This document shows positions 12,592 to 47,299 of a stretch of DNA of 64,000 nucleotides, in pieces. Origin of the DNA: Kiritimatiellia bacterium (GTDB taxonomy: Bacteria; Verrucomicrobiota; Kiritimatiellia; CAIVKH01); contig DAOLDL010000002.1 in the NCBI GenBank assembly GCA_035327305.1, positions 19,334 through 83,333 on the forward strand. The letters run 5' to 3'. The translations under genes were made by a program, and so were the position numbers. Numbering within the stretch: position 1 is the stretch's first letter; each line of letters opens with the position of its first letter. The notes below the pieces were generated by a model, which worked only from the letters and a program-made list of their open reading frames with translations, ran no database searches and was not told the DNA's origin.

Positions 12592-14625
12592 TTATTCATC
12601 TTCATGATCGCGCTTGACCGCAGATGCGATGATTTTCTGCGAAATATGCGCCGGCACAACATCATACCGGGCAAATGTCGCTTCAAACACTCCCTGCCCC
12701 TGTGTCAAGCTTCGCAACTCGGCGGCATAGCGGAAAATTTCCGCCTGAGGTGCTTCCGCCGAAATCGTCTGCATCCCGGCGTCCACGTCAATACCTAAAA
12801 TTCGTCCCCGGCGTTGATTCAAATCACCGGTTATGTCACCCATGTATTGTTCGGGTATGGTTATCTTAAGCGACATAATCGGTTCGAGCAAGACCGGACG
12901 AGCCTTGGATGCTCCGTCCGACAAGGCGCGTGAACCGGCGATCTTGAAAGCGACTTCGGACGAATCGACGTCATGGTAGGTTCCATCGTAAACCCTGACC
13001 TTGGCATTGATGATGGGATAACCGGCCAACACACCGCGTTGCAGACCTTCATGAACACCCTTCTCCACTGCAGGGATGAAATTGCGTGGTATGGCTCCGC
13101 CCACGATTTCGTTCACAAACCACGCATCATCGGACGGATCGCGAGACTCTACCTTCAGGTATACTTCGCCATATTGGCCCCGACCACCGGATTGCTTCTT
13201 GTGCTTGTAATGACCCTCGCCAAAGCCGGTCACAGTCTCCTTGTAGGCGACTTTGGGAATGTTAAGCTCGACATCGACATTGCTTCGCTTTTTCATCCGA
13301 CTGACTGCAATATCCAAATGGATATCGCCCATGCCGGATAAAATCAATTCATGCGTTTCCGTGTTTCGCTCCAAGTGCAAGGTCGGATCCTCTTCCACAA
13401 CCCGGTGAAGACCAATACCAGCCTTGTCGTCATCCCCTTGTGTTTTGGGAACCACGGCCACGGATGTAACTGGTTGGGGAAACCTGATCGGATCCAGTGT
13501 GATGTTTTTTCCAATCGCGCATAGCGTGTCATTCACACCTGTGCTTTTCAGTTTGGCCAAGGCCACAATTTGCCCGGCTGTGGCCAACGGAACGACTTCA
13601 TCTTTTTTTCCGTTATAGATATGAAGAGGACCAATACGTTCCTTCTGACCTTTCGTATTGTTATAGACTTCAGAATCAGCGGAAAGCGTTCCACTGTATA
13701 TTTTCAGAAACTGCAACTGACCGATAAACGGATCATTGATCGAACGCCAAATCAATCCACTAAACGGAGCGTCCGCCGATACATCGATCAGTTCACCTGC
13801 CGCGTCCAAGACTTCGTGGTCGATCGGCGAAGGAAATAAACGGAACAACTCGTCCAACAACTCACCCACGCCAACATCTTGCAATGCCTCGACTTCAAAT
13901 ACCGGAACGATGTGGCGGCGCTTGATGGCGACTCGCAAACCCATGGTCAATTCGTCGTGGCTCAAATGTTCGCCGCTCAAGTATTTATCCAGCAAGGCAT
14001 CGTCTTCCTCGGCGGCATCCTCCTCAAGCACGCTCATCGCCAATTCCGCCTCATCGGTCAGTTCATCGGGAATTTTTGTTTCGGATAGAATATCGATAAT
14101 GGCATGGCGATCATGGGTGGGCAACTCGACCGGTACGCATTTCTTGCCCCATACCGACTGGATATTAGCCAACACCTTGTCGAAATCGGCGTTTTCCTTG
14201 TCGAGTCCGGTAATAACAATGCCGCAGGGCAAATCGTTTTCCTCACACAACCGCCACGCACGGGTTGAACCGACTTGCACACCGGAGACTGCATCAACAA
14301 CGATCAAGGCCGCATCAGCCACTTTAGCCGCGGCCACGGACTGGCCATAAAGATCCAGATAACCCGGCGTGTCAATCAATGTAAGGTCCATCGATTGGCC
14401 TTCGGTGGTTTTGTATTGAACATGGAAAGGCTTGGCCCAAATGGATATTTTCCGATCCTTTTCCTCGTCGGTCCAGTCGGCCATGCTCGACCCGTTGGAG
14501 GAAAGGCCCAACCGGTCATTGTACCCGGTTTTGTAAAGGATGGCATCGATCAAGGTGGTTTTACCGTTTCCGGTATGGCCAAGTAAAACGACATTGCGGG
14601 TGTTGCTCACAGGCAGTTGCGACAT
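12592..14625 (-). CDS. Elongation factor G paralog (EF-G 2-like translational GTPase)
   Basis: G1 LLGHTGNGKTTLIDAIL, DTPGYLD, and EF-G domains II-V. The start is placed at MSQLPVSN (14625), preceded by GGAAAGGA, rather than the longer ORF start at 14706. Confidence 0.8.
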   Translation of the reverse strand: MSQLPVSNTRNVVLLGHTGNGKTTLIDAILYKTGYNDRLGLSSNGSSMADWTDEEKDRKISIWAKPFHVQYKTTEGQSMDLTLIDTPGYLDLYGQSVAAAKVADAALIVVDAVSGVQVGSTRAWRLCEENDLPCGIVITGLDKENADFDKVLANIQSVWGKKCVPVELPTHDRHAIIDILSETKIPDELTDEAELAMSVLEEDAAEEDDALLDKYLSGEHLSHDELTMGLRVAIKRRHIVPVFEVEALQDVGVGELLDELFRLFPSPIDHEVLDAAGELIDVSADAPFSGLIWRSINDPFIGQLQFLKIYSGTLSADSEVYNNTKGQKERIGPLHIYNGKKDEVVPLATAGQIVALAKLKSTGVNDTLCAIGKNITLDPIRFPQPVTSVAVVPKTQGDDDKAGIGLHRVVEEDPTLHLERNTETHELILSGMGDIHLDIAVSRMKKRSNVDVELNIPKVAYKETVTGFGEGHYKHKKQSGGRGQYGEVYLKVESRDPSDDAWFVNEIVGGAIPRNFIPAVEKGVHEGLQRGVLAGYPIINAKVRVYDGTYHDVDSSEVAFKIAGSRALSDGASKARPVLLEPIMSLKITIPEQYMGDITGDLNQRRGRILGIDVDAGMQTISAEAPQAEIFRYAAELRSLTQGQGVFEATFARYDVVPAHISQKIIASAVKRDHEDE

Positions 14626-14814
14626 GTTCGATTCCTTTCCATGATAATGGGTTCCGCCGATTAAAGGCGACCGTCCGATTGAGACATAAACCCTCTCAAT
14701 TGGCAATGGTTTTTACCCTAATCCAAACCCTGATCTTGCGGCTGGCGAAATAGCGACACAAACATTTACTTACCGGCGAGATTCAGCATCACAACGAAAA
14801 CAATCAACCGTGCG

Positions 14815-17502
14815 TTACATCCCCGCAAGCATGCGTGATAGTTTTTCGATTTTTTCAACCATGGTTGATTCGTTGGCCCTGGTTTGCTCCACTACTTCCG
14901 GTTTTGCCTTGGCCATGAATTTTTCGTTGGCCAGCATGGCCCGGGTTTTTACAAGGCTTTGTTCGGCAAGTTGGATTTCACCGGCAAGGCGTTTCTTCTC
15001 CGCCTCGATATCTATACCGGCCATCGACATGAAAATTGTACCGCGACTGCACAGGGCACTGGGCATAGGACCCTGCGGCTCATAACTCGAATCAATGGTC
15101 AACGTTCCGGACTTTAACAGCGAAGTAATACCGGAAGTATCGTCACGGAACAAAGCTTCGTCTTCACTGCTGGTCGGCTTAATGACAAAATCCATTTTCT
15201 GTCCGGGTGGAATTTCATAATCGCCACGCATGGTGCGACCGGCCCGGATCAACTCGTGCTTGCCGTCCACATATAGGACATATGGCTCGGCAAGATTTCG
15301 CAGTGGGCTATCGTTTTCGAGTGGCCATTCCGCATGAAGGATACTTTCACTTTCAGCGCCAAATCCAAAGGCGTGCCATAATTCCTCGGTCAGGTATGGC
15401 ATGAGCGGATGAAGCAATCTCAAGGAACGGGAGAAAACGTAAAGCATAATCCGCAACACTTCATGTTTGCGATCCTGATCATCGCCATAAAGTGATTCTT
15501 TCGCATATTCAAGATACCAGTCGCAAAACTCGTGCCACATGAAATCGTACAACACCTTGGCGTAATCGTTGAATCGATAACGCATCAGGCAATCTTCAGC
15601 GGCTTTTGCCGCATCCTGTACGCGCGCGACAATGTGCCAGTCATCCGGTCGCCAATTATGAGGATTTAAAGTCATCCCGGACGCGGTGATGCCTTCCCTG
15701 TCGAGGTTCATTTGCATGAAGCGCGCGGCATTCCAGATTTTCGTTCCGAAATTGCGCCCGATCTCGAATTTTTCCTTAGACACATAGACATCCTGACCGG
15801 TCGCGGTCAGCATGATCAAACTGAAGCGGAGCGCATCCGCACTGTACTCATTGATGATGTCGAGCGGATCAATGGAGTTCCCGAGGCTTTTACTCATCTT
15901 ACGGCCCTGGTTGTCACGCACCGTGCCGTGAATGTAGACTTCACGGAATGGGATGTCCCCCATGAACTCAAACCCCGCCATGATCATCCGGGCCACCCAG
16001 AAAAAGATAATTTCCGATGCCGTTGCCAGAGAGTGCGTAGGATAATAAAATGCCAGATCGGGATTTTGTGCGAGACGCTGATCCTTCAACTCCCCTTTGG
16101 GCCAGTCAAATACGCTGAACGGCCATAGCCAGGAAGAAAACCAGGTGTCGAGTACGTCTTCATCCTGGCGTATTCTGGACGAGTTACATTTTTTACATGC
16201 ACCTGGTTGACCGCGATCCGCCCATTCATACGCGCAGTCATCGCAGTAAAACACCGGAATCCGGTGCCCCCACCAAATCTGCCGGGAAATGCACCAGTCG
16301 CGAATATTCTCCATCCACTCGATATAAACTTTGTTCCATCGATCCGGAATAAAGTTGATCCGGCCATCTTTTACAGCGGCCAACGCCGGCTCGGCGAGCG
16401 GCTTCATCTTTACAAACCATTGCGGTGATAACCTCGGTTCCACTATTTGGTGGCACCGGTAACAATGCCCCACGGCATGTGGATGATCCTCCACCTTCGC
16501 CAAAAGTCCGGCGGCAGACATATCATCCATGATTTTCTTCCGACACGCAAACCGTTCCAATCCCTGATACGGGCCGGCTTCTTCGTTCATGTGTCCATCG
16601 TCGGTCATGACATTGATCATGGGAAGATTGTGGCGTTGTCCCATGGCGAAATCGTTCGGATCGTGTGCGGGCGTCACTTTAACACAACCGGTTCCAAAGG
16701 CCGGATCAACAAAATCATCGGCGATCACCGGGATTTCACGTCCGAGAACCGGCAGGATCAGCATTTTGCCTACCAGGTCCGCGTAGCGCTCATCCTTGGG
16801 ATTCACGGCCACCGCCGTGTCACCAAGATACGTTTCAGGACGCGTCGTGGCCACCGTTACAAAGCGACCGGTTTCTCCTTTCACCGGATAGCGAAAGTGA
16901 TAGAGCTTGCCTTGAACACTTTGATGTTCGCTTTCCTCGTCAGACAGAGCGGTTTCGCAACGCGGACACCAGTTAATGATGTATTTACCGCGATAAATCA
17001 GCCCTTTGTCGTAAAGGCGAACGAATACCTCCTTCACCGCGTTGCTCAATCCCTCATCCATGGTGAAGCGTTCGCGATCCCAGTCGCAAGCGCAACCAAG
17101 CCGCTTCAATTGTCGGATAATGGTCCCGCCGTATTGTTCCTTCCACTCCCAGACGCGTTCGACAAATTGCTCGCGACCGAGGTCGCGCCGCGATTTGCCC
17201 TCATCTTTTTTCAGTGCTCGTTCCACCACGTTTTGCGTGGCGATACCCGCATGATCGGTGCCGGGAACCCACACACTGTTGCGGCCCTGAAGTGAACGCC
17301 AACGGATCAGAATGTCCTGAATGGTATTGTTCAAGGCATGCCCCATGTGGAGGATGCCGGTGACATTCGGAGGAGGAATCACAATACAAAAAGGATCGCC
17401 GCCCTTGCGATGATCACGTGAAGCCACCTTATGGTCCAGCCAGAATGCGCTCCACTTTTCTTCAATAGCTTTGGGGTCGTAATTTTTCGGTAATTCACTC
17501 AT
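14815..17502 (-). CDS. valS: Valine--tRNA ligase
   Basis: Class I motifs [16 protein letters not shown] and KMSKSLGN. 895 aa with the C-terminal coiled coil typical of ValRS. Confidence 0.95.
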
Positions 17503-17647
17503 GGCGGACTCAATTTGTTAAAGTGCTCGACTAACACACGCGATAAAATATTGCGCTATCATACATAACTCACACGATTCATGGCGTCGCGTAACTTCGC
17601 CTTTCAGTTTTCTCACCTTTATTCAACATAACCGTTCACTTTATCCG

Positions 17648-19237
17648 TTACGCTTTGCCGGATCTTTTCTGTTCATCGAGGAACAATTTATATTCCACGC
17701 TGTCGACCAAGGCCTCCCACGAAGCTTCGATCAAGTTTGTAGAAACGCCGACCGTTCCCCACGTCTTATCGCCATCCGAAGATTCGATCAGCACCCGGGT
17801 TTTTGCGGCAGTGGCTTCTTCCGGATCGAGAATACGAACACGGTAATCAACCAAATGTACATCCTTGATACTCGGATAAGCCGCCGACAAGGCTTTTCGC
17901 ATCGCATCATTCAAGGCATCAACCGGTCCATCCCCCTCTCCCACGGTATGCAGGACGTCACCATTGATGCGGAGTTTGACCGTCGCCTCGGAAATGCATG
18001 GCTCTTCGGCATGACGCTTTTCAACAATTACCCGGAATCCTTCCAATGAGAAGAACGGCTTGTGCGCCTTCAGCACTTTCTGGATCAAAAGCTTGAAAGA
18101 TGCCTCCGCCGCCTCGAACTCGTAGCCCTTCTTTTCCATGACCTCGAGTTCCTTCAGGATGTTCTTCACCTCGGGTGATTTCTTGTCGAGCGAAAGCCCC
18201 ATTTCCACCGCCTTGAGGAAAACATTGCTGGTTCCCGACAATTCCGAGATAAGCACCCGTCGCTGGTTTCCAACGGATTCCGGGGTGATGTGCTCAAAGC
18301 TATGCGGATTCTTGTTTACGCCGTCGACGTGCATGCCGGCTTTGTGAGCAAACGCGCTGTGACCGACAAACGCGGCTTTGTCATTCGGGCGCACATTGGC
18401 CATCTCGTACACGAAGTCCGCCACGGTTTTGAGCTGACCCATTTTTTCCGGTGAGCTTAAAACAGAGTACCCCATCTTCAGGCCGAGATTGGGTATGATG
18501 GAGCACAAATTGGCGTTGCCGCATCGTTCGCCAAACCCGTTGATGGTGCCTTGCACATGCATCGCGCCGGCTCGAATCGCTTCCAGCGAATTCGCCACCC
18601 CCAGTTCCGAGTCGTTATGGGTATGAATACCGACGTTACCGCCGATCTGCGAAATCACGTCACGGGTTATGTCACCCACTTCAAAGTAAGGTGTTCCGCC
18701 GTTGGTGTCGCATAATACGATCCGGTCCGCGCCGGCTGACTTTGCGGCCCGAAGTGTCGCCAGCGCATGGGCCGGCGAATCTTTATAACCGTCAAAGAAA
18801 TGCTCGGCATCATAAATGACTTCACGTCCGTTTTCCTTGAGAAACCGGACGGTATCAAAGATCATGGCCCGGTTTTCATCTTCTGTGGTGCGCAGGACTT
18901 CATGAACATGAAAGGCCCAGCTTTTTCCAAAGATGGTGACAACCGGAGTGTCGGCTTCGATCAAAGCGCGGGATCCCGCATCATCCGCCGCCTTGATACC
19001 GGCGCGGCGGGTACTGCCGAACGCGGCGATACGGGCATGCTGAAGACGCTCGCGCTTGATCGCATGGAAAAACTCCATGTCCTTGGGGTTGGATGCGGCA
19101 TAACCGCCCTCGATGTAGTCGACGCCTAATTCATCCAGAATTTTTGCGACACGGATTTTGCCGACACTGGAAAAGGAAATGCCCTCACCCTGGGCGCCAT
19201 CGCGCAGAGTCGTATCATATATTTCTATTTTTTTCAT
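17648..19237 (-). CDS. cimA: (R)-citramalate synthase / 2-isopropylmalate synthase family protein (long CimA type with LeuA-dimer regulatory domain)
   Basis: IYDTTLRDGAQ, HTHNDSELGVAN, and a C-terminal LeuA_dimer-like region. The start is set at MKKIEIY (19237), with AGGAGCAGGTT upstream. Its position in the thr operon suggests threonine-independent Ile biosynthesis. Confidence 0.75.
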   Translation of the reverse strand: MKKIEIYDTTLRDGAQGEGISFSSVGKIRVAKILDELGVDYIEGGYAASNPKDMEFFHAIKRERLQHARIAAFGSTRRAGIKAADDAGSRALIEADTPVVTIFGKSWAFHVHEVLRTTEDENRAMIFDTVRFLKENGREVIYDAEHFFDGYKDSPAHALATLRAAKSAGADRIVLCDTNGGTPYFEVGDITRDVISQIGGNVGIHTHNDSELGVANSLEAIRAGAMHVQGTINGFGERCGNANLCSIIPNLGLKMGYSVLSSPEKMGQLKTVADFVYEMANVRPNDKAAFVGHSAFAHKAGMHVDGVNKNPHSFEHITPESVGNQRRVLISELSGTSNVFLKAVEMGLSLDKKSPEVKNILKELEVMEKKGYEFEAAEASFKLLIQKVLKAHKPFFSLEGFRVIVEKRHAEEPCISEATVKLRINGDVLHTVGEGDGPVDALNDAMRKALSAAYPSIKDVHLVDYRVRILDPEEATAAKTRVLIESSDGDKTWGTVGVSTNLIEASWEALVDSVEYKLFLDEQKRSGKA

Positions 19238-19305
19238 AACCTGCTCCTGTTTCCCGGCTTGATCCATTCGCCAATTCCATGTTCAGACGTGGCGTCTGCC
19301 TGTGT

Positions 19306-20553
19306 TTATTTTTTCTTAACGGGTCTCTTTTTTACAACCTGTTTATCCAACTCAAATATTTTATGCAACGTCTGCACGGCCTTGTCGGCATGCGCTTTTT
19401 TAATCACCACGGAAATCTTGATTTCCGAGGTGGCGATCATGCTGATGTTGATTTTTGCCTTGGCCAATGCGTCAAACATGCGAAATGCGACGCCGGAATG
19501 ACTGCGCATCCCCACGCCTACGATGCTGATCTTCGCAATATCTTCATCGATGTCGGGCTGACGCTCGCCGAGATGGCCTTCAAGCGCTTTCAAGGTTTTG
19601 CGGGTTTTATTGACTTCGGTGGCCGGCACCGTGAAGGAAATATCCGTAACGCCCATGGCGCTGACGTTTTGCACGATCATGTCCACGTTGATGCTGGCGG
19701 CGGCCAGCTCCTTGAATAATTCTGCGGCTACACCGGGTTTATCCGGCACCGAAGAAATGGTAACTTTTGCCTGCCCTTTATCAGCGGCCACACCACGCAC
19801 TACAATGTCTTCCATATTCTTAACCTCTTCTCTAACCAATGTTCCGGGTTTTTCCACAAAGCTCGACATGACTTCCAGGGTCACGCCATATTTTTTCGCA
19901 AATTCCACGGCTCGCGATTGCAGGACTTCCGAGCCGAGGCTCGCGAGCTCCAGCATTTCATCGTAGGCAATTTCATCCAACTTCACAGCCTCCGGAACCA
20001 CCCGGGGATTTGCCGTGTAAACGCCTTCGACATCTTTCAATATCTGGCATCGGTCGGCCTTTAACGCCGCGGCCAGCGCCACTGCAGTGGTATCCGATCC
20101 CCCGCGACCAAGCGTGGCGATATCCTGATTGGGGTTCAACCCCTGAAAGCCGGCGATAATGACGATCTGGTTTTTCGCAAGTTGTTCGAAGATGCGCGTA
20201 GGTTTGATGTCGCGAATCTTCGCCTTGGTGTGCACGGCATCGGTAAAGATTCCAGCTTGCGGACCGCTCATGGCGATGGCATCCGCCCCCATGGCATGTA
20301 ATGCCATGGTCAGCACGGCCGACGATATTTGTTCGCCGCTGGCCATCAACATATCCAGCTCGCGTTCACTCGGATCGCTGGTGATTTGTTTCGCCAAGGC
20401 AATCAAATCGTCGGTGGTATCTCCCATTGCGCTCACGACCACCACAACTTTGTTGCCTTGATTGCGGGTGTTCAAGATGCGTTGAGCAACCCTGCGCATG
20501 CAATCGGCATCCGCCACCGAACTGCCTCCATATTTTTGTACTATCAATGCCAT
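19306..20553 (-). CDS. lysC: Aspartate kinase with C-terminal ACT domains
   Basis: IVQKYGGSSV, VVVVSAMGDTTD, and tandem ACT domains. Confidence 0.9.
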   Translation of the reverse strand: MALIVQKYGGSSVADADCMRRVAQRILNTRNQGNKVVVVVSAMGDTTDDLIALAKQITSDPSERELDMLMASGEQISSAVLTMALHAMGADAIAMSGPQAGIFTDAVHTKAKIRDIKPTRIFEQLAKNQIVIIAGFQGLNPNQDIATLGRGGSDTTAVALAAALKADRCQILKDVEGVYTANPRVVPEAVKLDEIAYDEMLELASLGSEVLQSRAVEFAKKYGVTLEVMSSFVEKPGTLVREEVKNMEDIVVRGVAADKGQAKVTISSVPDKPGVAAELFKELAAASINVDMIVQNVSAMGVTDISFTVPATEVNKTRKTLKALEGHLGERQPDIDEDIAKISIVGVGMRSHSGVAFRMFDALAKAKINISMIATSEIKISVVIKKAHADKAVQTLHKIFELDKQVVKKRPVKKK

Positions 20554-20559
20554 ATACGT

Positions 20560-21702
20560 TTAGTCTCCCAATAATTTACTTATGCAACGATGAGCGGGCA
20601 AGCGGCCCAAACCGCCCCCATGGCACGAAACCTCGTCCCAGCGCCCGACCTTGTCGGGCGAAACATTGTTGCCGGCCAGCGCCACCGGTATCTGCTCCAT
20701 GAGTTGGCCCTCTTCCGGCATGGCGACCAACATGATACGCGTATCTGGAATACACTCAACTGCTTGTGTGATACGGCTCAACACATGAATGTCCAGCCGA
20801 TCCAACGCCTTTACTTTTTCCACGCCTTCACCGAACCGACCGCCTTCCAGCGGGGCTTCAACATAAACCACGGTGATTTCATGCCGTGCCATCACGTCCG
20901 CCAACTCATCCACGCCGATCAATTCGGGTTGCACTGAATCAGCCCATACATCGCCCAGATGCTTGACTGTCATACGACATAACGTGCCAATTCCCCGCCC
21001 GAGCGGACTATTGGTCACCATCGCCGAAATCAGTGGCGCCCCGATGAAGGGACGACTGATCTTTGCCGACGGACCGCCCGCCCAGAGCCAAAGTGCGTTG
21101 GCGGGATTTTCCCCGAGATCAACACGCACATCGTTGATGCTTTGACGAGCAAGGCATTCAGCCGCGGCTCGCATGAACTTCGCACGGGCGGACAATGTAT
21201 CACCATCCTCCGGCAAGCGGACCCCCGGAGCAGGAAATTCACCTGCGTCTGAAGCAGTCTCCGCCTTATCAAAACGGACAGCAACCCGGCCTCTGCCGGT
21301 AATCGTGATCGTTGCGCCATGCGATTTGGCCACATCTGCCAACGAGTCCACCAACCATGTAGTTTCGTCCAAGCTTAAACCGGTCACCCGGCTTTCGCGG
21401 ACCTCTGATCCGTCGCATGTGACAAAATTTCCACGGTAACAATAACCGTTTCCTGGCGCGCCCTCCACTGGACCGCGCACCATGGTTTTCGCTTCTTCTG
21501 AAGCAATTCCCAAAACGATACCGGTCATTTCCGGAGCGGTTGTGCCTGCATGATCGGCTGGCCACAACAGATAGCCGCCCACACCGCGGCGAACCAACGC
21601 CGTGGCATGAATATTCCGGGCAAGTTGCAAAGGGGTTGAACCCTCCAACTCATCGGAAGGCAAATCCGCCGCACCTTCATAAATGACCAATACATATTTC
21701 AC
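20560..21702 (-). CDS. Archaeal-type cofactor-independent phosphoglycerate mutase (ApgM) family protein; from its operon position, a candidate non-orthologous homoserine kinase
   Basis: ApgM-like N-terminus MKYVLVIYEGAADLP and a metalloenzyme-superfamily C-terminus. The gene sits 6 nt after hom and 6 nt before lysC. Confidence 0.65.
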   Translation of the reverse strand: MKYVLVIYEGAADLPSDELEGSTPLQLARNIHATALVRRGVGGYLLWPADHAGTTAPEMTGIVLGIASEEAKTMVRGPVEGAPGNGYCYRGNFVTCDGSEVRESRVTGLSLDETTWLVDSLADVAKSHGATITITGRGRVAVRFDKAETASDAGEFPAPGVRLPEDGDTLSARAKFMRAAAECLARQSINDVRVDLGENPANALWLWAGGPSAKISRPFIGAPLISAMVTNSPLGRGIGTLCRMTVKHLGDVWADSVQPELIGVDELADVMARHEITVVYVEAPLEGGRFGEGVEKVKALDRLDIHVLSRITQAVECIPDTRIMLVAMPEEGQLMEQIPVALAGNNVSPDKVGRWDEVSCHGGGLGRLPAHRCISKLLGD

Positions 21703-21708
21703 GGAACA

Positions 21709-23007
21709 TCAATTAAAATCTTCCACACGGAAACGCACGGTCGGAGCCTTGATCGAGTCCAACGCATCAATTTGCGCCAATGCCTCCCGGCAATCTCTTT
21801 CCTTGGCCGCGTGGGTCATCATGATCATTTCCGCCGATCCCTTGTCGGAACCGTCCTTCTGGATCATGCTGGCAATGCTGATGCGGTGATCGCCAAGAAT
21901 TTTGGCAACTCTGGCCAGCACCCCGGGTTTATCTTCCACCGACAAACGCAGATAGTACCGGCAGGTGATATCATCCACCGACAACATGGCGGGCTTTTCG
22001 CCTTCCGGAATAAATGCCGGCAAATGATGCCGCGATTGCGTAGCAAGCTGACGGGCCACGGCCGCGACATCGCTTAACACCGCGCTTGCCGTCGGGAGCC
22101 GTCCCGCGCCCCGTCCATAATAAAGCGTGTCGCCCACGATATCGCCGGACACCATGACCGCATTGAATACACTGCTGACCGATGCAATCATGTGGGTTGC
22201 CGGAACCAGCGCCGGGTGAACCCGGACGCTAACCGCGTTGTCCTGCTTTTTGACGACCGCCAGCAATTTAACCCGGTAGCCCATATCCGCCGCATAAGCA
22301 ATATCTTCGCGGGCGATACCTCGTATGCCTTCCACGTACATGGAAGAAAGCGGTACCGGGAAACCGTAAGCCAAAGAGGCCAACAATGCGGCTTTGTGCG
22401 CAGTATCGTGACCATCAATATCAAGGCTTGGCTCCGCTTCGGCGAATCCCGCGTCTTGAGCTTCGCGCAGAACCTTGTCAAACGGCAGACCTTCCAGTTC
22501 CATCCTGGTGAGGATGTAATTGCAGGTGCCATTGAGGATGCCATAAAGATTTGGAATGTGATTGGCGATCAGTCCATCGCGCAAAGCCTGTATGATCGGG
22601 ATTCCGCCCGCCACACTGGCTTCAAACCGGAGATCCACTTTGTTTTCGTCGGCAAGGGCAAACAACCCCGCGCCGTATTCGGCCAGAAGTTTCTTGTTGG
22701 CCGTGACCACGGGTTTTCCCATTTTGAGCGCCTCGGTGACCAGTTCACGGGCGATTCCTACGCCGCCAATCAATTCGATGATGATGTGAACAGAAGGGTC
22801 TCGTATGACCGACATCGCGTCTGTGGTAAGCACGGACCGATCAACCACCACGCCGCGATCGCGCTCAAGATCGAGGTCGGCGATTTTGCGCAAGACCAGA
22901 CGAACCCCGGAGCGGCTGGCAATCAGATCGCCATTACGTTGCAGACCTTCCACTACCCCGGCGCCGACGGTGCCGAAACCCAGTAATCCCAATCCTATTT
23001 CTTTCAT
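21709..23007 (-). CDS. hom: Homoserine dehydrogenase with C-terminal ACT domain
   Basis: GLGLLGFGTVGAGV NAD-binding N-terminus, catalytic core, and C-terminal ACT. SD AGGAAG lies 7 nt before the ATG. Confidence 0.9.
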   Translation of the reverse strand: MKEIGLGLLGFGTVGAGVVEGLQRNGDLIASRSGVRLVLRKIADLDLERDRGVVVDRSVLTTDAMSVIRDPSVHIIIELIGGVGIARELVTEALKMGKPVVTANKKLLAEYGAGLFALADENKVDLRFEASVAGGIPIIQALRDGLIANHIPNLYGILNGTCNYILTRMELEGLPFDKVLREAQDAGFAEAEPSLDIDGHDTAHKAALLASLAYGFPVPLSSMYVEGIRGIAREDIAYAADMGYRVKLLAVVKKQDNAVSVRVHPALVPATHMIASVSSVFNAVMVSGDIVGDTLYYGRGAGRLPTASAVLSDVAAVARQLATQSRHHLPAFIPEGEKPAMLSVDDITCRYYLRLSVEDKPGVLARVAKILGDHRISIASMIQKDGSDKGSAEMIMMTHAAKERDCREALAQIDALDSIKAPTVRFRVEDFN

Positions 23008-23030
23008 ATTCGCTTCCTGTAAAATGTTAC

Positions 23031-23055
23031 AAAAAAACCCCTCTCTAAAGAGGGG
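23031..23055 (-). terminator. Rho-independent terminator in the hom leader (attenuator terminator)
   Basis: Minus strand reads CCCCTCT-TTAG-AGAGGGG followed by TTTTTTT. It ends 23 nt upstream of the hom ATG on the same strand, so hom transcription must read through it. Confidence 0.8.
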
Positions 23056-23083
23056 TTGTCAAACAGCAGACGCCGCCAGCCCC

Positions 23084-23134
23084 TCAAGAGTCCGAGGTAG
23101 TTACAATAATTGTAATGGCAGTCGTGGTTTTCAT
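23084..23134 (-). CDS. thrL: Threonine/isoleucine-rich leader peptide (thrL-like) of the hom operon attenuator
   Basis: Minus-strand ORF ATG AAA ACC ACG ACT GCC ATT ACA ATT ATT GTA ACT ACC TCG GAC TCT TGA encodes MKTTTAITIIVTTSDS (6 Thr, 3 Ile in 16 codons). The stop overlaps GAGGGG, which can pair with the terminator 5' arm CCCCTC. A weak SD AAGG lies upstream. Confidence 0.65.
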   Translation of the reverse strand: MKTTTAITIIVTTSDS

Positions 23135-23424
23135 TAATAAGTGCCTTATAATAGCGATTTTACTTGGCACGACAAGTGCGAATTTGAGCATAAAAACCAT
23201 CATTTTTCCACGATAAATACTGAAAAAGGATTTAGATATACGGACCATGCACCTGATTTTGCACCGTAAAATCGGTGTTGGTATTGAGCAAACCATCAAA
23301 ACCTGGATCCCGATTTCATTGGCGAACGAGGACCCGATAAGGCCGGAGATGATAAAGAAACGAATCCCAGACGATTATGCGTAACAAGATGACACAGTCA
23401 TTCTTGTCTGTGTATTTGTCTGTT

Positions 23425-25740
23425 TTAGTTTGCCTGCATTGCTTTCAAAACATTTTCCGCGGTGAAAGGTGATGTGCGCAAACGAACACCCACCGCATTG
23501 TAAATTGCGTTAGCGATAGCCGGGAGTGGACCATTAATGCAAATTTCCGATACGCTTTTGGCGCCATACGGTCCGGTTTTTTCGTAGCTCGGCACCAGGA
23601 TCGTCTTGATCACCGGTTTGTCCCGCATCGAATATATTTTGTAATGCTGAAAGCCGGCGTTCAACATCTTGCCTTTGGGACTGAACAAATATTTTTCGGT
23701 CAGGGCATAACTGATTCCGTTAAGTACCCCACCCTCGGTTTGTCCTTCTGCAAGCTTGGGATTGATCGCGGTTCCGCAATCCACCGCGGCAACATATCGA
23801 AGGACCCGGACACGACCCGTGAGCGTATCAACTTCCACTTCGGTAAAATGCGCTGAAAATGGCGGCGGAGATTTATGCGATATCCTCGAGGAAACCGCAC
23901 CGATCTGAAATTGATCGGTTCCGTAAAGCGCCCGCAAGGCAATTTCACTGAATGTGACCGATCGCCCATCGGCGGATACCGCCTTGTTGTCGGCCAGCTT
24001 GATTTCCTTGCCCGGACATTCCATCATGGCGCTTGCCACTTCAATCATTTGTCGGGCCACCTTTTCCGCCACGTTTTTAACCGCCATACCGCTTAAATAT
24101 GTCGTACTGGAAGCATACGCCCCGACATCAAACGGCGTCATATCCGTGTCAGATGAATAAACAATGATCTTGTCCATATCGCAACCGAGTGTCTCCGCCG
24201 CAATCTGGGCAAGCACGGTATCGCTACCCGTGCCAAGATCGGTTGCCCCCATGAGCAGATTAAACGATCCGTCATCGTTTATTTTCAGGGAGGCCGCACC
24301 CATGTCGATTTCGGGGATACTCGATCCCTGCATCAACGCCGCCATACCAATACCACGGCGGAACCGCCCCTTCTTGTCCTGCCATCTTCCCCGTTTCTTC
24401 CAGCCGATCTCCTTTGCGCCGAGTTTGATGCACTTATCAAGTTCGCAACTTCCAATCGATTGCTCGACGCCGGCCTTGCCTTCACCCAATGCGCGAAACA
24501 CCGGCGATGTTTCGCCCGTGCGAATAGCATTCTTGCGGCGAAACTCCAACGAATCCATTCCGATGGCCTCCGCCATTTCATCCATTTGACAATCAATCGC
24601 AAACGATGATTGCGTGGCGCCATATCCTCGATACGCTCCGCCAACCGGAAGATTGGTGTAACACGATTCTCCAACAAAATGAATGTTCGGGGTCCGGTAT
24701 AGCGGCAATATTTTACTGCCGCTGTTACAGACCACGGTCAAGGCATGCGATCCATAAGCGCCGGTATTGGTAATGCAATCGAGACCGACGGCGGTAATGG
24801 TTCCATCTTTTTTAACACCGGTGCGAACCCGCATCTTTTCCGGGTGACGAGTCCGGGAAGAGACGAATTCCTCTTCGCGGGTGTATTTCCAGAACACGGG
24901 GCGACCGGTTCGCATTGCCATCAGCGCCACCACATCTTCCAAAAGCACTTCCTGTTTTACACCAAATCCACCGCCGATGCGCGGCTTGATTACACGAATC
25001 TTTCGCACGGGAATATCCAATGTCTGGGCTACGATTCGACGTACATGAAATGGGACTTGCGTGCTGGTGGTGATGATCACCCGGCCGTCAGCGGCGAGGT
25101 GCGCCATTGAGACATGTGGTTCGATGGGACAATGCTGGGCATAGTCGGTATAGTATTCGTGATCCATTGCAACATCCGCTTCGCGCAAGCCCGCTTCCAA
25201 GTCGCCGACATCCATAGCCACCCGGGCGGCGAGATTCCTGGCCGGTTCGTAAGGAACGGGGATCGGAATATGCGCCTCGGGTTCATCGTGAATAACCGGT
25301 GCGCCGGGCTTCAGCGCTTCCTCTATGGACAACACTGCTGGCAAAACCTCGTACGTGACCTTTATTTTCTTCAAGGCCTCGATAGCTTGTTCGGCGGTTT
25401 CGGCCGCCACGGCGGCAACACGATCACCCACATGCCGCACTTTGTTGTCGAACATGAACGTATCATAGGGTGATGGCTCGGGAAATCCCTGCCCGGCGGT
25501 TGTGTGTGCGATTCTGGGGACGTTTCCATGATGCAGAATAATATGTACCCCGGGCATTTTATCCGCCTCGCTGGTATCTATCGAGGTGATGCGAGCGTGG
25601 GCGTGTGGACTCCACAACATTTTCACAATCAAGGCATCGGCAGGCTTGAAATCGGCCACAAACATCGGCTTACCAGTGGCAAGTGAGAGGGAATCAATTT
25701 TTTTGACGGACTTGTTGACAACCGTGAAGTTCTTTTTCAT
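23425..25740 (-). CDS. Molybdopterin-dependent hydroxylase large subunit (xanthine dehydrogenase / aldehyde oxidoreductase family)
   Basis: 771 aa with Ald_Xan_dh_C and molybdopterin-binding-like regions (GGGFGVKQEV, TQVPFHVRR). Starts 4 nt inside the Fe-S subunit gene end. Confidence 0.85.
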   Translation of the reverse strand: MKKNFTVVNKSVKKIDSLSLATGKPMFVADFKPADALIVKMLWSPHAHARITSIDTSEADKMPGVHIILHHGNVPRIAHTTAGQGFPEPSPYDTFMFDNKVRHVGDRVAAVAAETAEQAIEALKKIKVTYEVLPAVLSIEEALKPGAPVIHDEPEAHIPIPVPYEPARNLAARVAMDVGDLEAGLREADVAMDHEYYTDYAQHCPIEPHVSMAHLAADGRVIITTSTQVPFHVRRIVAQTLDIPVRKIRVIKPRIGGGFGVKQEVLLEDVVALMAMRTGRPVFWKYTREEEFVSSRTRHPEKMRVRTGVKKDGTITAVGLDCITNTGAYGSHALTVVCNSGSKILPLYRTPNIHFVGESCYTNLPVGGAYRGYGATQSSFAIDCQMDEMAEAIGMDSLEFRRKNAIRTGETSPVFRALGEGKAGVEQSIGSCELDKCIKLGAKEIGWKKRGRWQDKKGRFRRGIGMAALMQGSSIPEIDMGAASLKINDDGSFNLLMGATDLGTGSDTVLAQIAAETLGCDMDKIIVYSSDTDMTPFDVGAYASSTTYLSGMAVKNVAEKVARQMIEVASAMMECPGKEIKLADNKAVSADGRSVTFSEIALRALYGTDQFQIGAVSSRISHKSPPPFSAHFTEVEVDTLTGRVRVLRYVAAVDCGTAINPKLAEGQTEGGVLNGISYALTEKYLFSPKGKMLNAGFQHYKIYSMRDKPVIKTILVPSYEKTGPYGAKSVSEICINGPLPAIANAIYNAVGVRLRTSPFTAENVLKAMQAN

Positions 25741-26219
25741 GCAACGCCTCCTTTTCCGGCGGCCGCAACCTTCCGTAATGCCGTTTGAATTTTTTCATAC
25801 CCGGTGCAACGGCAGAGCTGTCCGTCGAGGTGAATCGCCATTTCCTCGTCGGTAGGTGTCGGATTTATATCAAACAACGCCTTGGCGGCCATGATCATAC
25901 CCGGCATGCAGTAACCGCACTGAACTGCGCCCTCTTCCACCAGCGCCGCCTGAATGGGATGTGGGTTGTCCAGCGAACCGACCGATTCAACAGTGTCCAC
26001 GATTCCGCCGTCGGCCTGCACCGCATAGGTAAGACACGAATTCACGACGCGACCATTCAGATTGACTGCGCACGAACCACAAGCGCCTTCACTGCAACCC
26101 ATTTTCACACTGTAGCATCCGAGTTGACGGAGAATGTCGATGAGCTTTGTTTTTACATCGACCGTCACGGATTGTTTGCGTCCGTTTAACGTGAGTTGTA
26201 TGGTCATGATGTTACTCAT
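25737..26219 (-). CDS. [2Fe-2S]-binding small subunit of the molybdo-hydroxylase (CoxS/XdhC-like)
   Basis: Cys motifs CSEGACGSCAV and CGYCMPG...CRCTGY. The start at MSNIMTIQ (26219) has a strong AAAGGAGG SD and an ATGA overlap with the FAD subunit stop. Confidence 0.85.
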   Translation of the reverse strand: MSNIMTIQLTLNGRKQSVTVDVKTKLIDILRQLGCYSVKMGCSEGACGSCAVNLNGRVVNSCLTYAVQADGGIVDTVESVGSLDNPHPIQAALVEEGAVQCGYCMPGMIMAAKALFDINPTPTDEEMAIHLDGQLCRCTGYEKIQTALRKVAAAGKGGVA

Positions 26220-27061
26220 GTCGCACCTCCTTTGGCCATCTGCCATGCATCAATTATTACGTCTTCAAGATGTGCCTGGGCCAGAGCGCGTATGTAATCA
26301 TCGCTGAAGCCATCGCCTCCTTTCCATTTCACCGAATCCAATGTCGAGGCAATCGCCTGCTTGATGGCATCGGTGGAAATGGCTACTCCGGCAAGTGCAT
26401 TTTCCAACCCGGGGAGACGACACGGAAGCGGTACACCCGCTCCTGCCGCTATCCGAATATCGGCAACCGTTCGCTTGTCGAGTCTTATCCAGGCCGCCAG
26501 CGTCAGCAGGCTGAAGTCCATGTTCACCACGTTTTCCTTGTGGTAAGCGAAACCGCAACCGCTTTTGACTGCGGGTACTTTTATCTCCACGAGCAAATCA
26601 CCGGGTTCATACAGGCGCGCCGGTTGACCTTTGAAATAAACATCCGCGGTATGGGTTTGGACATCCTGGCCTGTAATGGTCATTACCGCGCCAAGCGCAA
26701 GTAGTGCGACAGGAAAATCGTTCCAGGGAAAAACGCGGGCGATATTGCCGCCGATGGTGGTCATGTTGCGAATGGGCTGACTGACAAACCGAAGGGCCAC
26801 GCGATCCAGCACCCAGCCGGGAGCATGATACGATTGTAGATCGGCGATGCGTGTGTTGGCTCCGATGGTAAAACTGTCCGGTCCATGATCGATACGGTCG
26901 TAGCCCATCCAAGCAAGGTCGACAGCGACTTTTTCCTCATCACCTTTTAGGAATGAGTGGGACGTAGCACCTGCCATTGGAAGTCCGGATGGGCCTAATT
27001 CCTTGAGAATACGTTTTGCCTCATCCAGAGTCGTCGGTCGATGATATCCACTTAGTTTCAT
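26216..27061 (-). CDS. FAD-binding subunit of the molybdo-hydroxylase (CoxM/XdhB-like)
   Basis: FAD_binding_5-like N-terminus (MKLSGYHRPTTLDEA...AGATSH) and CO-dehydrogenase flavoprotein C-terminal domain. The start at 27061 has a GGGAGAA SD; the ORF-track start at 27079 has none. Confidence 0.8.
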   Translation of the reverse strand: MKLSGYHRPTTLDEAKRILKELGPSGLPMAGATSHSFLKGDEEKVAVDLAWMGYDRIDHGPDSFTIGANTRIADLQSYHAPGWVLDRVALRFVSQPIRNMTTIGGNIARVFPWNDFPVALLALGAVMTITGQDVQTHTADVYFKGQPARLYEPGDLLVEIKVPAVKSGCGFAYHKENVVNMDFSLLTLAAWIRLDKRTVADIRIAAGAGVPLPCRLPGLENALAGVAISTDAIKQAIASTLDSVKWKGGDGFSDDYIRALAQAHLEDVIIDAWQMAKGGAT

Positions 27062-27274
27062 AAGTATTCTCCCACGCATGAATGGTAGTCGCCGCAGTAT
27101 TGAATAGGAAGAATTACACGCCCCTATCGTCGATTAAGGGAATCCACTAATGAAGAAATTTGCCAAGTCTCTTGAACACGGCTCGGCGGGAGCCGATACA
27201 TCCACTATTTCTTTTATTTCGGAATTTCCACAGATCCATATCTACCCGCACAGATAGAATGCCTTCGTCATGAT

Positions 27275-28648
27275 TTACCTGGCCGCGGCCAACATCTTTG
27301 CGGCGATATCATTCGCGTGATGGAACAACCTCTGCTCATCCACGCCGAGAAGCTCGCCCTTGGCCACGCGTATCACGCCGTTGACAATGGTATAATCAGC
27401 ACGGGCACCTGCACCACAGAAAAGAATTGCTGATGCAGGGTCGGCCATGGCGCCGGCGTATTCGATTTTATCGAGGCGGAACATTGTGAGGTCGGCGAGC
27501 AGACCCGGTGCGATGCGTCCCAGGTCGCTCCATCCCAGCATTTCCGCCCCGCCCATCGTAGCCATTCGCACCACGGTTTGCGCAGGCATTGCGTCAACTG
27601 CTGTGCCAACACGATGCACCAACAGAGCCATCTGCAATTCGCGCGACAGGCTGGAGCTGTCATTGCTGGCGCTTCCGTCCACCGCCAATCCCACTCTTAC
27701 TCCTGCTTTGAGCATTTTTGGAATCGGCGCAATACCGGAGCCAAGTCGCAGGTTCGATGTCGGACAATGAGCAACACCGGTTTTCGTCGCGGCGAGTCGG
27801 TGAATTTCAGCGTCGTTAAAATAGATGCCATGAGCGAACCAGACGTCAGGCCCCAGCCACTCGTTTTTCTCCATGTATTCAAGCGGCCGCATGCCATGGG
27901 TGGCAAGACAGTATTCCTCTTCGTCAACAGTTTCGCAAAGGTGTGTGTGGCAAATCACGTTACGTGAACGCGCGAACCTGATGGTCTCCAGTAAAAGTTC
28001 AGAGGTGACGGAAAACGGCGAACAAGGAGCCAACGCGATGCGGCACATGGAGTCCGGAGATGGATCATGACAGGCGTCAATGACTCGCGCACAATCCCGC
28101 AGAATTACTTCATGATGCTGAACCACATCGTCCGGAGGTAATCCGCCATCGGATCGCCCGCGACTCATACTTCCGCGTGTGGGATGAAATCGAATGCCCA
28201 TTTCGCGAGCGGCGGCGATCTCAACATCGAGCAATTCACCCGTGGTGTTTTCAGGAAAGACATAAAAATGGTCGGTGGTGGTTGTGCAACCGGACAGCAA
28301 CAATTCTCCCACACCAACACGTGTGCTGATGTCCACGGCCTCAGGCGTCAAACCGCGCCAGATTTCATAGAGTCCTATGAGCCAGTCGAATAGTTTTGCA
28401 TTTTGCACGCAGGGAATATTTCGGGTGAGGGTCTGATAAAGATGGTGATGGGTGTTGATAAAACCGGGATAAACGACGTGACGGCTGGCGTCGATCACTT
28501 CAGCGTCGGCGGGTGGGAATGGTTTATGGGGGCCGGTATGGATGGCGGCGATGCGATTTCCTTGAATCAACAGGTCCGCGCCATTCAGCGGCGCTTCACC
28601 GTCGTTCATGGTGACCAGGGTGTGGATGTTTCGCAGAAGTATTTTCAT
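27275..28648 (-). CDS. Amidohydrolase (SsnA / chlorohydrolase / 8-oxoguanine-deaminase-like)
   Basis: HxH metal motif FINTHHHLYQ, HTHLCE, and Asp near the C-terminus. It is a paralog of the adjacent upstream amidohydrolase, with a 4-nt overlap to it. Confidence 0.8.
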   Translation of the reverse strand: MKILLRNIHTLVTMNDGEAPLNGADLLIQGNRIAAIHTGPHKPFPPADAEVIDASRHVVYPGFINTHHHLYQTLTRNIPCVQNAKLFDWLIGLYEIWRGLTPEAVDISTRVGVGELLLSGCTTTTDHFYVFPENTTGELLDVEIAAAREMGIRFHPTRGSMSRGRSDGGLPPDDVVQHHEVILRDCARVIDACHDPSPDSMCRIALAPCSPFSVTSELLLETIRFARSRNVICHTHLCETVDEEEYCLATHGMRPLEYMEKNEWLGPDVWFAHGIYFNDAEIHRLAATKTGVAHCPTSNLRLGSGIAPIPKMLKAGVRVGLAVDGSASNDSSSLSRELQMALLVHRVGTAVDAMPAQTVVRMATMGGAEMLGWSDLGRIAPGLLADLTMFRLDKIEYAGAMADPASAILFCGAGARADYTIVNGVIRVAKGELLGVDEQRLFHHANDIAAKMLAAAR

Positions 28649-29961
28649 TCAATTCTCTTCCACATTGCACGCGCTTGTTCAACGGCCTTGCGACGAATAT
28701 TTTCCTCATCCAGATGATGAATGATTCCGTTTTCCATCAGGACCCGGCCTCTGCACATGGTCATGGTAACCGGGGCATTCACCAATCCGAACAGAAAGTG
28801 ACCATAAAATGTCGATGGATCAAATGGCGTGAATGGCACATAATCCATAATGATCAGGTCGGCCAGATATCCCTCGACCAAACGACCCCGCCCTTCCGGA
28901 AATATTCTTTCGGCAATCAACCGATTGTTATCCAACAATAATCGGCAAGCTTCAACAAACGCCACACGCGGATCGCGCCGCACGGCCCGCTGAATCAAAT
29001 ACGCGGCCCTGGCCTGCGCGATCATGTTGTTGGACATTCCATCGGTGCCAAGTCCCACCAGAATTCCCGCGTGCAACAGTTCAAGCAGAGGGGTAACAGC
29101 CAGGCCGTTGTTCATGTTGGACTCGGGATTTGTAACCATCATGCATCCGGTGTCGGCCAGCAGATTCCATCCCCGTTCGTCAAGGTGAATACCATGGGCG
29201 AAAATCGATCCCGGACCGGCAATTCCAGCCTTTACAAAACGGTCAACCGGTGCCTCTCCATATTTTTCCAACGACTCTTCAGCATCGCATTCCGCTTCAT
29301 CGATATGGACATGAAAACCGACACCCATCGTTTGTCCTTCGGTTGCACAACGCTCCAGTGTGGCATTGCCCAAGGTCATGGAAGCATGCAATCCGAACAG
29401 CGCTTTAATCTGCGGGTCATCATCATCCCGGCATTTTTTGATAAAACGTATGTTTTCTTCAATACCCTCGCCCACGCGGTTACGGTCGGAGACTTCATAA
29501 CACAAACAGCCGTTCAGCCCGGCTTCACGGAATGCTTTTTCAATGATATCGAGACTACTGAAACTGCACGAGGGTGAGGCATGGTGATCAATGATGGTGG
29601 TGCATCCGGCATGGATGGCCTCCACCATCGGAAGCATGGACGAATAATACACATCGTCTTCGTTTAATGCATAATCCAGTTTCCACCAAAGCCGTTCCAG
29701 TATCTGTTTGAAATTCGAAGCTGGCTCACCGGGTGGCGAGAATCCACGCGCCAATGTTGAATAGAGATGGTGGTGCGTATTGATAAATCCCGGCATAATC
29801 ACGCGTCCATTCGCATCGATAATCCGGTCCGCCGACGCATCTCCCACATCGCCGACCGCGGCGATGGTTTCATCTTCGACCAACACCGCGCCGTGATCAA
29901 AGAAATCGCCTTGTTCATCCAACGTAACCAAAATGCCGTTTTTTATAAGTACGCTTCCCAT
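28645..29961 (-). CDS. Amidohydrolase (SsnA-like, second paralog)
   Basis: FINTHHHLYS and HVHIDEAE motifs. The start at MGSVLIKNG (29961) has AAAGGAGG 7 nt upstream; the longer ORF start at 30123 runs inside the upstream gene. Confidence 0.8.
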   Translation of the reverse strand: MGSVLIKNGILVTLDEQGDFFDHGAVLVEDETIAAVGDVGDASADRIIDANGRVIMPGFINTHHHLYSTLARGFSPPGEPASNFKQILERLWWKLDYALNEDDVYYSSMLPMVEAIHAGCTTIIDHHASPSCSFSSLDIIEKAFREAGLNGCLCYEVSDRNRVGEGIEENIRFIKKCRDDDDPQIKALFGLHASMTLGNATLERCATEGQTMGVGFHVHIDEAECDAEESLEKYGEAPVDRFVKAGIAGPGSIFAHGIHLDERGWNLLADTGCMMVTNPESNMNNGLAVTPLLELLHAGILVGLGTDGMSNNMIAQARAAYLIQRAVRRDPRVAFVEACRLLLDNNRLIAERIFPEGRGRLVEGYLADLIIMDYVPFTPFDPSTFYGHFLFGLVNAPVTMTMCRGRVLMENGIIHHLDEENIRRKAVEQARAMWKRIE

Positions 29962-29963
29962 GA

Positions 29964-33302: not shown

Positions 33303-33500
33303 TATCAGGTCTCCCCACCGTGCCATTGTTTGATTCCATCTCGATGGCAACCAGCACAAAGGAAATATCACCGCCATTATTTCAATATCAGGGAAGCACC
33401 GATACTCCTTCTGCGACGAATAGACCGCTCAAACGTTTCGTCTTTTCCCTGATAGGTCATTACGGCGCGTGCCCGATGGTATTAAAACTGCTTTATAACG

Positions 33501-43056: not shown

Positions 43057-43057
43057 A

Positions 43058-43465: not shown

Positions 43466-43466
43466 C

Positions 43467-43958: not shown

Positions 43959-43969
43959 CGGAGGAAAAC

Positions 43970-47293: not shown

Positions 47294-47299
47294 CAAACC

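Follow-up and report, generated by a model that had tools for sequence, protein, structure and literature searches.

A homoserine kinase-like protein lacking the catalytic residues of HomK in the threonine operon of Kiritimatiellia bacteria

Gene order and coding content of the locus

We analyzed a 64-kb stretch of DNA from a Kiritimatiellia metagenome-assembled genome (MAG; assembly GCA_035327305.1, contig DAOLDL010000002.1), referred to below as the window, whose numbering is used for all positions. On its minus strand, a 380-amino-acid open reading frame (ORF), here termed X (20560–21702, GTG start), lies between hom and lysC, the genes for homoserine dehydrogenase and aspartate kinase. A preliminary description made from the DNA sequence had identified this gene as a homologue of the archaeal-type cofactor-independent phosphoglycerate mutase ApgM and had assigned it as a probable homoserine kinase from its context, an operon without thrB preceded by a Thr/Ile attenuator. 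Our results indicate that X is an ApgM-fold protein derived from the phosphoglycerate mutase (PGM)-like homoserine kinase HomK, and that the residues defining HomK have been lost from X and from its entire clade, in which the protein is still under purifying selection.

The gene preceding X, hom (21709–23007, minus strand), encodes a homoserine dehydrogenase with a C-terminal ACT domain (NF004976, 534 bits against a cut-off of 205; Pfam NAD_binding_3, Homoserine_dh, and ACT). X is followed by lysC (19306–20553, minus strand), which encodes a monofunctional aspartate kinase with two ACT domains (NF005155, 581 bits against a cut-off of 346; Pfam AA_kinase and ACT). The gaps flanking X are exactly 6 nucleotides each, TGA-TGTTCC-GTG at the hom/X junction and TAA-ACGTAT-ATG at the X/lysC junction, in agreement with the spacing reported in the preliminary description, and the Shine-Dalgarno sequence of lysC, GGGAGA, sits within the 3′ end of X. 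Further downstream are cimA (17648–19267, minus strand; citramalate synthase, TIGR00977, 729 bits against a cut-off of 450), the final conserved gene of the cluster and syntenic in nearly all related loci, and valS (14815–17502, minus strand). The latter was assigned from its ORF and synteny; it is the downstream neighbor in Kiritimatiellia, Omnitrophota, and Planctomycetota loci, and its link to the cluster is one of synteny. The N-terminus of X, MKYVLVIYEGAAD, agrees with the N-termini of its homologues, and the protein is identical in three independent assemblies. Its NCBI entry, HMP88726.1, comes from a Kiritimatiellia MAG and is annotated as a "hypothetical protein."

Fold and ancestry of X

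The top NCBIfam match of X by score was TIGR00306 (apgM), with 116.6 bits against a cut-off of 320 (E 1e-33, residues 2–377); the alignment spans almost the whole protein and bears out the proposed ApgM-family homology. X scored 103 bits on NF003242 (cut-off 426) and 96.5 bits on TIGR02535 ("proposed homoserine kinase"), which is short of the 446.3 bits that membership demands. Pfam gave no matches at E 0.01 or better, including to PF01676 and PF10143. An AlphaFold model of X (27 clade sequences) had a predicted local distance difference test (pLDDT) score of 92.8 and a predicted template modeling (pTM) score of 0.92. The best PDB matches found for this model with Foldseek were the ApgM structures 3idd, 3kd8, and 2zkt (E 2e-23 to 5e-22, TM up to 0.69), and X is accordingly predicted to adopt the two-domain ApgM fold. 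Together, these data describe a protein whose fold is intact and whose sequence is distant from every curated family.

HomK is represented by BT2402 of Bacteroides thetaiotaomicron and corresponds to TIGR02535, also called ThrB2 (bioRxiv 10.1101/2024.10.14.618325). Both BT2402 and the diverged Dehalococcoides protein DET_RS08350, each with intact defining residues, complement E. coli thrB::kan; the phosphate donor of HomK is not yet known (bioRxiv 10.1101/2024.10.14.618325). HomK is thus validated experimentally, and the premise of the preliminary description that members of the PGM-like superfamily replace homoserine kinase in some bacteria has proved correct. The GapMind analysis reported there was limited to homologues at least 30% identical to BT2402 (bioRxiv 10.1101/2024.10.14.618325); X is less than 30% identical to canonical HomK. 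In the literature, we found HomK covered only by the GapMind papers, and none that dealt with degenerate forms or with threonine synthesis in Kiritimatiellia.

We aligned X with 54 clade relatives (33–57% identical) and eight distant canonical matches, P0057–P0064, using the numbering of P0057. Six of these canonical relatives were scanned and all exceeded the TIGR02535 cut-off (455–526 bits against 446.3); the clade members P0002, P0037, P0043, and P0052 reached 114–215 bits. Because the canonical relatives pass TIGR02535, P0057 is encoded directly 3′ of hom, and X contains both the vEAPD Glu and the motif VRxDLGENPANxxWLWGxG, we conclude that X clearly descends from HomK. X is also encoded beside hom on the same strand, which is the genomic context of HomK. 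In contrast to ThrB, X has neither GHMP homology nor the PxGSGLGSSA motif, and it is unrelated to that family.

Loss of the HomK catalytic residues

The residues that define HomK are the phospho-accepting Ser56 and the Asp and His ligands of two metal ions, and the GapMind authors accepted diverged, hom-linked HomKs only after these residues had been checked (bioRxiv 10.1101/2024.10.14.618325). The canonical proteins P0057–P0064 retain all the corresponding motifs, namely PDG, GSD, vEAPDEAGH, (P/A)DH(P/A)TP, and THT. In X, all seven residues are replaced or missing. The phosphate carrier S56 (S56 of BT2402), found in eight of eight canonical HomKs and only 5 of the 55 clade members, is A56 in X, in the local sequence TTAPEM. 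In metal site 1 (BT2402 D9, D346, and H347; P0057 D9, D339, and H340), all 55 clade members carry Glu in place of the first Asp (E9 in X), D339 is mostly Leu (M328 in X), and H340 is mostly deleted, aligning with a gap in X. Metal site 2 comprises the Asp and His of EAPDEAGH and a downstream His (P0057 D295, H299, and H349); all three positions vary in the clade, and X has L285, R289, and Q333. This site was mapped by motif; the numbers given in the preprint, D274, H278, and H325, fit no single offset with D346 and H347. These three numbers, which appear in Appendix 3 (bioRxiv 10.1101/2024.10.14.618325), may follow another numbering.

A phmmer alignment of X to 3kd8 gave identical substitutions, and the same losses were seen in ∼28 genome-derived Kiritimatiellia-type loci. 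Within the Kiritimatiellia clade, the former ligand positions have no conserved replacement residues. On these alignments, the catalytic center is gone in X and throughout the 55-member clade. Without a phospho-Ser nucleophile or a binuclear metal site, X cannot carry out the chemistry of HomK as it is understood at present. The context-based assignment of X as a homoserine kinase therefore holds for its ancestry, and in setting aside a glycolytic mutase, but not for the claim that X is a kinase, which its 96.5 bits on TIGR02535, the absence of any Pfam match, and the missing Ser and six metal ligands leave unsupported. Genomic context alone would mis-annotate X as a homoserine kinase.

Two other HomK features are retained. 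BT2402 E299 is the specificity Glu, for which a contact with the homoserine amino group has been proposed; mutases have Lys in its place (bioRxiv 10.1101/2024.10.14.618325). X keeps a Glu at this position (E282, in YVEAP), as do 50 of the 55 clade members, whereas the ApgM structures carry Lys (iKATD and fKPTD; 3kd8 and 2zkt). We infer the equivalence of E282 and BT2402 E299 from the +7 offset that relates BT2402 D346/H347 to P0057 D339/H340, together with the Glu-versus-Lys contrast. Conservation within the clade is highest over the HomK-type middle-domain motif INDVRVDLGENPANALWLWAGG at residues 189–210 of X (21073–21138, minus strand). It reads INDVRVDLGENPANxLWLWGGG, matching the HomK-type VRxDLGENPANxxWLWGxG, and the ApgM structures differ there. 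Twenty-seven diverse members of the clade all share N190, R193, D195, L196, N199, P200, W207, G209, and G210, and identity over the motif region is 0.66 in the clade versus 0.58 in canonical HomK. Of the 86 alignment columns without variation in canonical HomK, the clade retains 26 and loses 46. A conserved acidic cluster is present at the old active site, with E9 invariant and D13, E57/58, and E282 near-invariant.

These residues also bear on whether X might be a glycolytic ApgM, as its top-scoring NCBIfam match, its full-length homology, and its resemblance to the archaeal-type structures 2zkt, 3kd8, and 3idd could suggest. The TIGR00306 score falls far below the cut-off, however, and X matches neither Metalloenzyme nor PhosphMutase in Pfam. 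It lacks the nucleophile and every ligand of the binuclear metal site, it has Glu rather than the mutase Lys before the former metal-binding Asp, its middle-domain motif is of the HomK type, and it is encoded in a threonine operon. A glycolytic role for X was rejected on these grounds, and we regard it as extremely improbable.

X is under relaxed purifying selection

We compared the window with five close relatives. Nonsynonymous divergence (dN) was 0.42–0.54 for X, and the corresponding values for hom, lysC, cimA, and valS from these pairs of genomes were 0.06–0.14; synonymous divergence (dS) was saturated (>1.3, with some estimates undefined), and we therefore relied on ratios of dN and on a bound for ω (dN/dS). 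The amino acid substitution rate of X was 4–8 times that of the neighboring genes, and its ω was well below 1 yet several-fold above theirs. Expressed relative to the divergence of Hom, values were 1.8–5.8 for Kiritimatiellia X, 0.8–0.9 for canonical HomK, and ∼0.8–1.3 for a degenerate type from Omnitrophota described below. The ORF of X is full-length in all ∼28 Kiritimatiellia-type loci not cut by contig ends, down to ∼52–56% Hom identity. Across 27 diverse members of the clade, 24 positions are invariant and another 26 near-invariant. Constraint peaks at residues 181–200 and at the N-terminus, and it is lost in the loops that bear the catalytic residues in HomK; over residues 241–260, for example, identity is 0.34 in the X clade versus 0.64 in canonical HomK.

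These results show that X is under relaxed but real purifying selection on a reduced core. The lost active site and the raised substitution rate might instead mark a functionless HomK relic that is decaying after another enzyme took over its role, but we consider this very unlikely. Such a relic would not be expected to keep fifty invariant or near-invariant positions, a confidently modeled fold, tight spacing with hom and lysC, or intact full-length ORFs in every untruncated locus, and with dS above 1.3 the observed dN leaves ω well below 1. Neutral pseudogene decay was rejected given the purifying selection and the intact ORFs. The intact ORFs and the concentration of constraint rule out a decaying pseudogene and indicate that the functional requirements on X are reduced and different.

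Distribution and synteny of X and related proteins

We scanned one genome per GTDB species and examined the best 80 loci. Approximately 28 of these come from Kiritimatiellia or "Verrucomicrobia" MAGs; all carry the degenerate protein, most in the same gene order, and every clade contig that was looked up has hom-X-lysC-cimA. No cultured Kiritimatiellales species was among the best 80 genome matches. When ORFs were clustered across the Kiritimatiellia-type loci, only hom, X, lysC, cimA, and valS recurred. The remaining loci belong to MAGs of Omnitrophota, Planctomycetota, and other members of the Planctomycetes-Verrucomicrobia-Chlamydiae (PVC) group, in the order hom-thrC-(HomK-like)-lysC-cimA-valS, the extra gene being threonine synthase. 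Some of these non-Kiritimatiellia loci carry a canonical HomK, which also occupies this position in Omnitrophota related to those with the degenerate type described below. Judging from gene order and homology, X is the apparent positional orthologue of HomK within the cluster hom-(thrC)-homK-lysC-cimA-valS found in bacteria of the PVC group and Omnitrophota.

Throughout Kiritimatiellia, Omnitrophota, and Planctomycetota, cimA is a constant component of the hom-HomK/X-lysC cluster, with valS usually following it. The presence of cimA implies that threonine-independent isoleucine synthesis is probably co-regulated with the aspartate pathway.

Many Omnitrophota loci (L035–L074; for instance L037 10001–11206 and L047 10001–11206) encode a second degenerate type between thrC and lysC, with the fixed pattern A9, D57, H292, R299, G339, H340, and I349. 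These proteins resemble X in operon slot, fold family, and loss of most metal ligands, and they have the change of H299 to Arg in common with X and many members of its clade. They differ from X in having His in place of the specificity Glu, in their fixed pattern and Hom-like rate, in their position beside thrC, and in forming a clade of their own. The Kiritimatiellia and Omnitrophota degenerate clades are separate in a neighbor-joining (NJ) tree, whose long branches and midpoint rooting do not discriminate one loss from two; active-site loss may have occurred independently in the two groups.

An exhaustive profile search returned 4921 relatives at E below 1e-3, and the seven residues were scored in the 129 full-length proteins among the top 150 representatives of clusters at 50% identity. 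All seven ligands were kept in only 14 of the 129, and ∼94 kept two or fewer. On this residue count, HomK-like proteins without the active site are common and diverse. Other recurrent degenerate patterns were noted among P0066–P0205, such as DSRPF.AGP and S/A-S-D-Q-N-H-D-H.

A Thr/Ile leader and attenuator precede hom

The attenuator that had been proposed ahead of the operon was confirmed in its sequence elements. A leader peptide ORF of 16 codons, MKTTTAITIIVTTSDS followed by a stop codon (23084–23134, minus strand), contains 5 Thr and 3 Ile codons. An intrinsic terminator, AACCCCTCT-TTAG-AGAGGGGTT followed by T7, occupies 23030–23057 on the minus strand (hairpin 23057–23036; 9 bp with 5 GC pairs in the terminator scan); it folds at −14.3 kcal/mol and ends 23 nucleotides ahead of the hom ATG. 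In the alternative antiterminator (2:3) helix (23050–23085, minus strand), CCCCTC, which otherwise serves as the 5′ terminator arm, pairs with GAGGGG, a sequence overlapping the stop codon of the leader, and folding of 23105–23046 gave this antiterminator at −17.7 kcal/mol. Just 5′ of the leader ORF lies a candidate σ70-like promoter, TTGTCG-16-TATTAT (23148–23175, minus strand), which matches the consensus at 9 of 12 positions and is weak when taken alone. The region thus has the features of a leader peptide attenuator, with a short ORF rich in regulatory codons, mutually exclusive helices, and a placement directly 5′ of the first gene. By the classical attenuation model, ribosome stalling at the Thr/Ile codons would leave GAGGGG free and allow the antiterminator to form, and a ribosome that reaches the leader stop codon would mask GAGGGG.

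Gene callers report a 38-aa ORF, MLKFALVV...MKTTTAITIIVTTSDS (window 23084–23200, minus strand; L091 8503–8619), that extends the leader 5′. The ATG at 23134 is the likely start of the leader; this shorter form is favored because only the last 14–16 codons are conserved in other genomes.

Thr/Ile-rich leaders of 10–18 amino acids, accompanied by the same helices, precede hom in ∼22 Kiritimatiellia-type loci, with MKNVTVITIVTTSGS, MNSRATFITITTTGGS, and MKRVVAIITITTTGGS as examples, and the GAGGGG and CCCCTC elements are conserved across related loci. The elements TGAGGGG...CCCCTC...GAGGGGTTTTTTT were noted 5′ of hom in L001, L002, L004, L005, L010–L012, L021–L024, L027, L030, and L032. The same comparison found no such leaders in Omnitrophota or Planctomycetota loci, and this attenuator family appears to be restricted to Kiritimatiellia-type genomes. 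An Rfam scan of 14000–24000 gave no family for the leader; its sole match was at chance level (E 0.64), to an unrelated small RNA. The arrangement is similar to E. coli thrL (Rfam Thr_leader), in which a short ORF with abundant Thr and Ile codons and alternative antiterminator and terminator hairpins precede threonine pathway genes. It differs from thrL in that the Kiritimatiellia leader is another sequence family, has no Rfam match, and controls an operon that also includes cimA. Thr and Ile codons fit an operon that supplies threonine (hom, lysC) and isoleucine (cimA).

Search for another homoserine kinase

Searches for another kinase covered the window and ±10 kb around X in the related loci. 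In agreement with the earlier report of an operon without thrB, Pfam identified no GHMP kinase among the 34 window ORFs scanned, and no threonine synthase (thrC) or phosphoglycerate mutase (pgm) either. Both tblastn with E. coli ThrB and a search for the GHMP motif were negative for ThrB-like sequences, in the window as well as in 89 related loci, and none of these loci carries a second HomK-like gene. Among these 89 loci, thrC occurs only in those of Omnitrophota and Planctomycetota.

Other features of the window

Directly upstream of the leader, 23425–33377 on the minus strand encodes a set of molybdoenzyme proteins of the xanthine dehydrogenase family: a MoCoBD subunit (23425–25740), a 2Fe-2S subunit (25737–26246), and an FAD subunit (26216–27079), followed by two amidohydrolases (27275–30123) and a 1137-aa Fer4_20/Pyr_redox protein, all on that strand. 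This region looks like a purine or pyrimidine degradation cluster. On the plus strand, 38424–48724 contains complex-I-like and NiFe-hydrogenase modules, with a flavin reductase in the middle of the cluster; its products include Proton_antipo_M, NADHdh, a 49-kDa/NiFe large subunit, NuoE/F-like and NuoG-like Fe-S proteins, Oxidored_q6, and a second NiFeSe large subunit. A short ORF of the phage integrase family (50252–50935, minus strand) lies back to back with lexA (50998–51612, plus strand), and the GC content of the window is lowest at 50–54 kb (0.48–0.49).

Discussion

X shares with HomK the two-domain ApgM fold, the position directly after hom, the Glu equivalent to E299, and the VRxDLGENPANxxWLWGxG motif. 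It differs from HomK in lacking the catalytic Ser and the Asp/His ligands and in evolving at 2–6 times the rate of Hom, compared with ∼0.8–0.9 for canonical HomK. The interpretation that we favor, with moderate confidence, is that X is a HomK-derived, ligand-binding pseudoenzyme, retained in the threonine operon as a regulatory or scaffolding partner, and that the kinase is encoded elsewhere. The two-domain fold, the homoserine-contacting Glu, and the middle-domain motif would allow X to bind an amino acid, perhaps homoserine or O-phosphohomoserine. Under Thr/Ile attenuation, X would be co-produced with Hom and aspartate kinase, probably through translational coupling, and would probably act as a regulatory or scaffolding partner of these two enzymes. 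Phosphorylation of homoserine would then fall to another enzyme encoded elsewhere in the genome.

A comparable case is HisZ, a catalytically dead paralogue of histidyl-tRNA synthetase (HisRS) that regulates the ATP phosphoribosyltransferase (ATP-PRT) HisG. By analogy, HisZ resembles X in being an operon-encoded enzyme homologue that has lost catalytic residues and kept ligand-binding elements. The resemblance is functional and not one of homology, and a partnership of X with Hom or LysC would be the corresponding prediction.

Several observations weigh against a pseudoenzyme. Co-regulation through the Thr/Ile leader points to a continuing importance of X for supplying threonine. No ThrB, ThrH-like candidate, or second HomK copy turned up when the 64-kb window and the 10 kb on either side of X in ∼28 related loci were searched. 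The degenerate Omnitrophota protein between thrC and lysC matches the slow evolution of Hom, a behavior closer to that of an enzyme than to that of a relic, and the acidic cluster formed by E9, D13, E57/58, and E282 could bind Mg2+. The main alternative is that X is still the homoserine phosphotransferase of the cell, working through a remodeled mechanism that needs neither a phospho-Ser intermediate nor a His/Asp binuclear metal site. As a variant, phosphate may be transferred directly in line at a carboxylate (E9/D13/E58/E282) Mg2+ site, with R289 replacing a metal. X occupies the exact slot of HomK in an operon with the gene order of HomK operons, lies within the reach of the Thr/Ile attenuation, and keeps both the substrate-domain motif and the Glu that sets specificity; all 55 clade members have E9, no other kinase was seen in the window or the 89 related loci, and in the degenerate Omnitrophota clade A9, H292, R299, G339, and H340 are fixed and the rate is Hom-like. 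However, all seven residues that every characterized member of this superfamily branch needs, and that the GapMind authors required, are lost. The former ligand positions in the Kiritimatiellia clade vary and have not settled on a new set of residues, and X evolves at 2–6 times the rate of Hom, as against a rate slightly below that of Hom for canonical HomK. To our knowledge, there is no precedent for a catalytic member of this fold without metal ligands. We consider a retained kinase activity possible but rather unlikely. Even more tentatively, X and its constrained Omnitrophota counterparts could be the only enzymes making O-phosphohomoserine in these bacteria, without a phospho-Ser nucleophile or a binuclear metal center, a proposal that we view as doubtful.

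The PGM-like class of homoserine kinases is already known, and X represents a catalytically stripped form of which we found no earlier description in the literature. Annotation today would present it either as a homoserine kinase, by context-based gap filling, or as a hypothetical protein or phosphoglycerate mutase, by homology pipelines, and neither label fits. The residues described here provide a rule by which pathway-annotation tools could exclude X-type sequences. X belongs to a large, undescribed set of HomK-derived proteins whose active site has been dismantled and which are kept in threonine operons across Kiritimatiellia and many Omnitrophota. It would be either a new operon-embedded pseudoenzyme, perhaps acting as a regulator of or scaffold for homoserine dehydrogenase or aspartate kinase, as we favor, or a mechanistically new phosphotransferase. 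If X-type proteins do remain kinases, they would show an old fold carrying out catalysis in a new way and would explain threonine synthesis in two under-studied phyla. Either way, X poses a testable question about how O-phosphohomoserine is supplied in these mostly uncultured bacteria.

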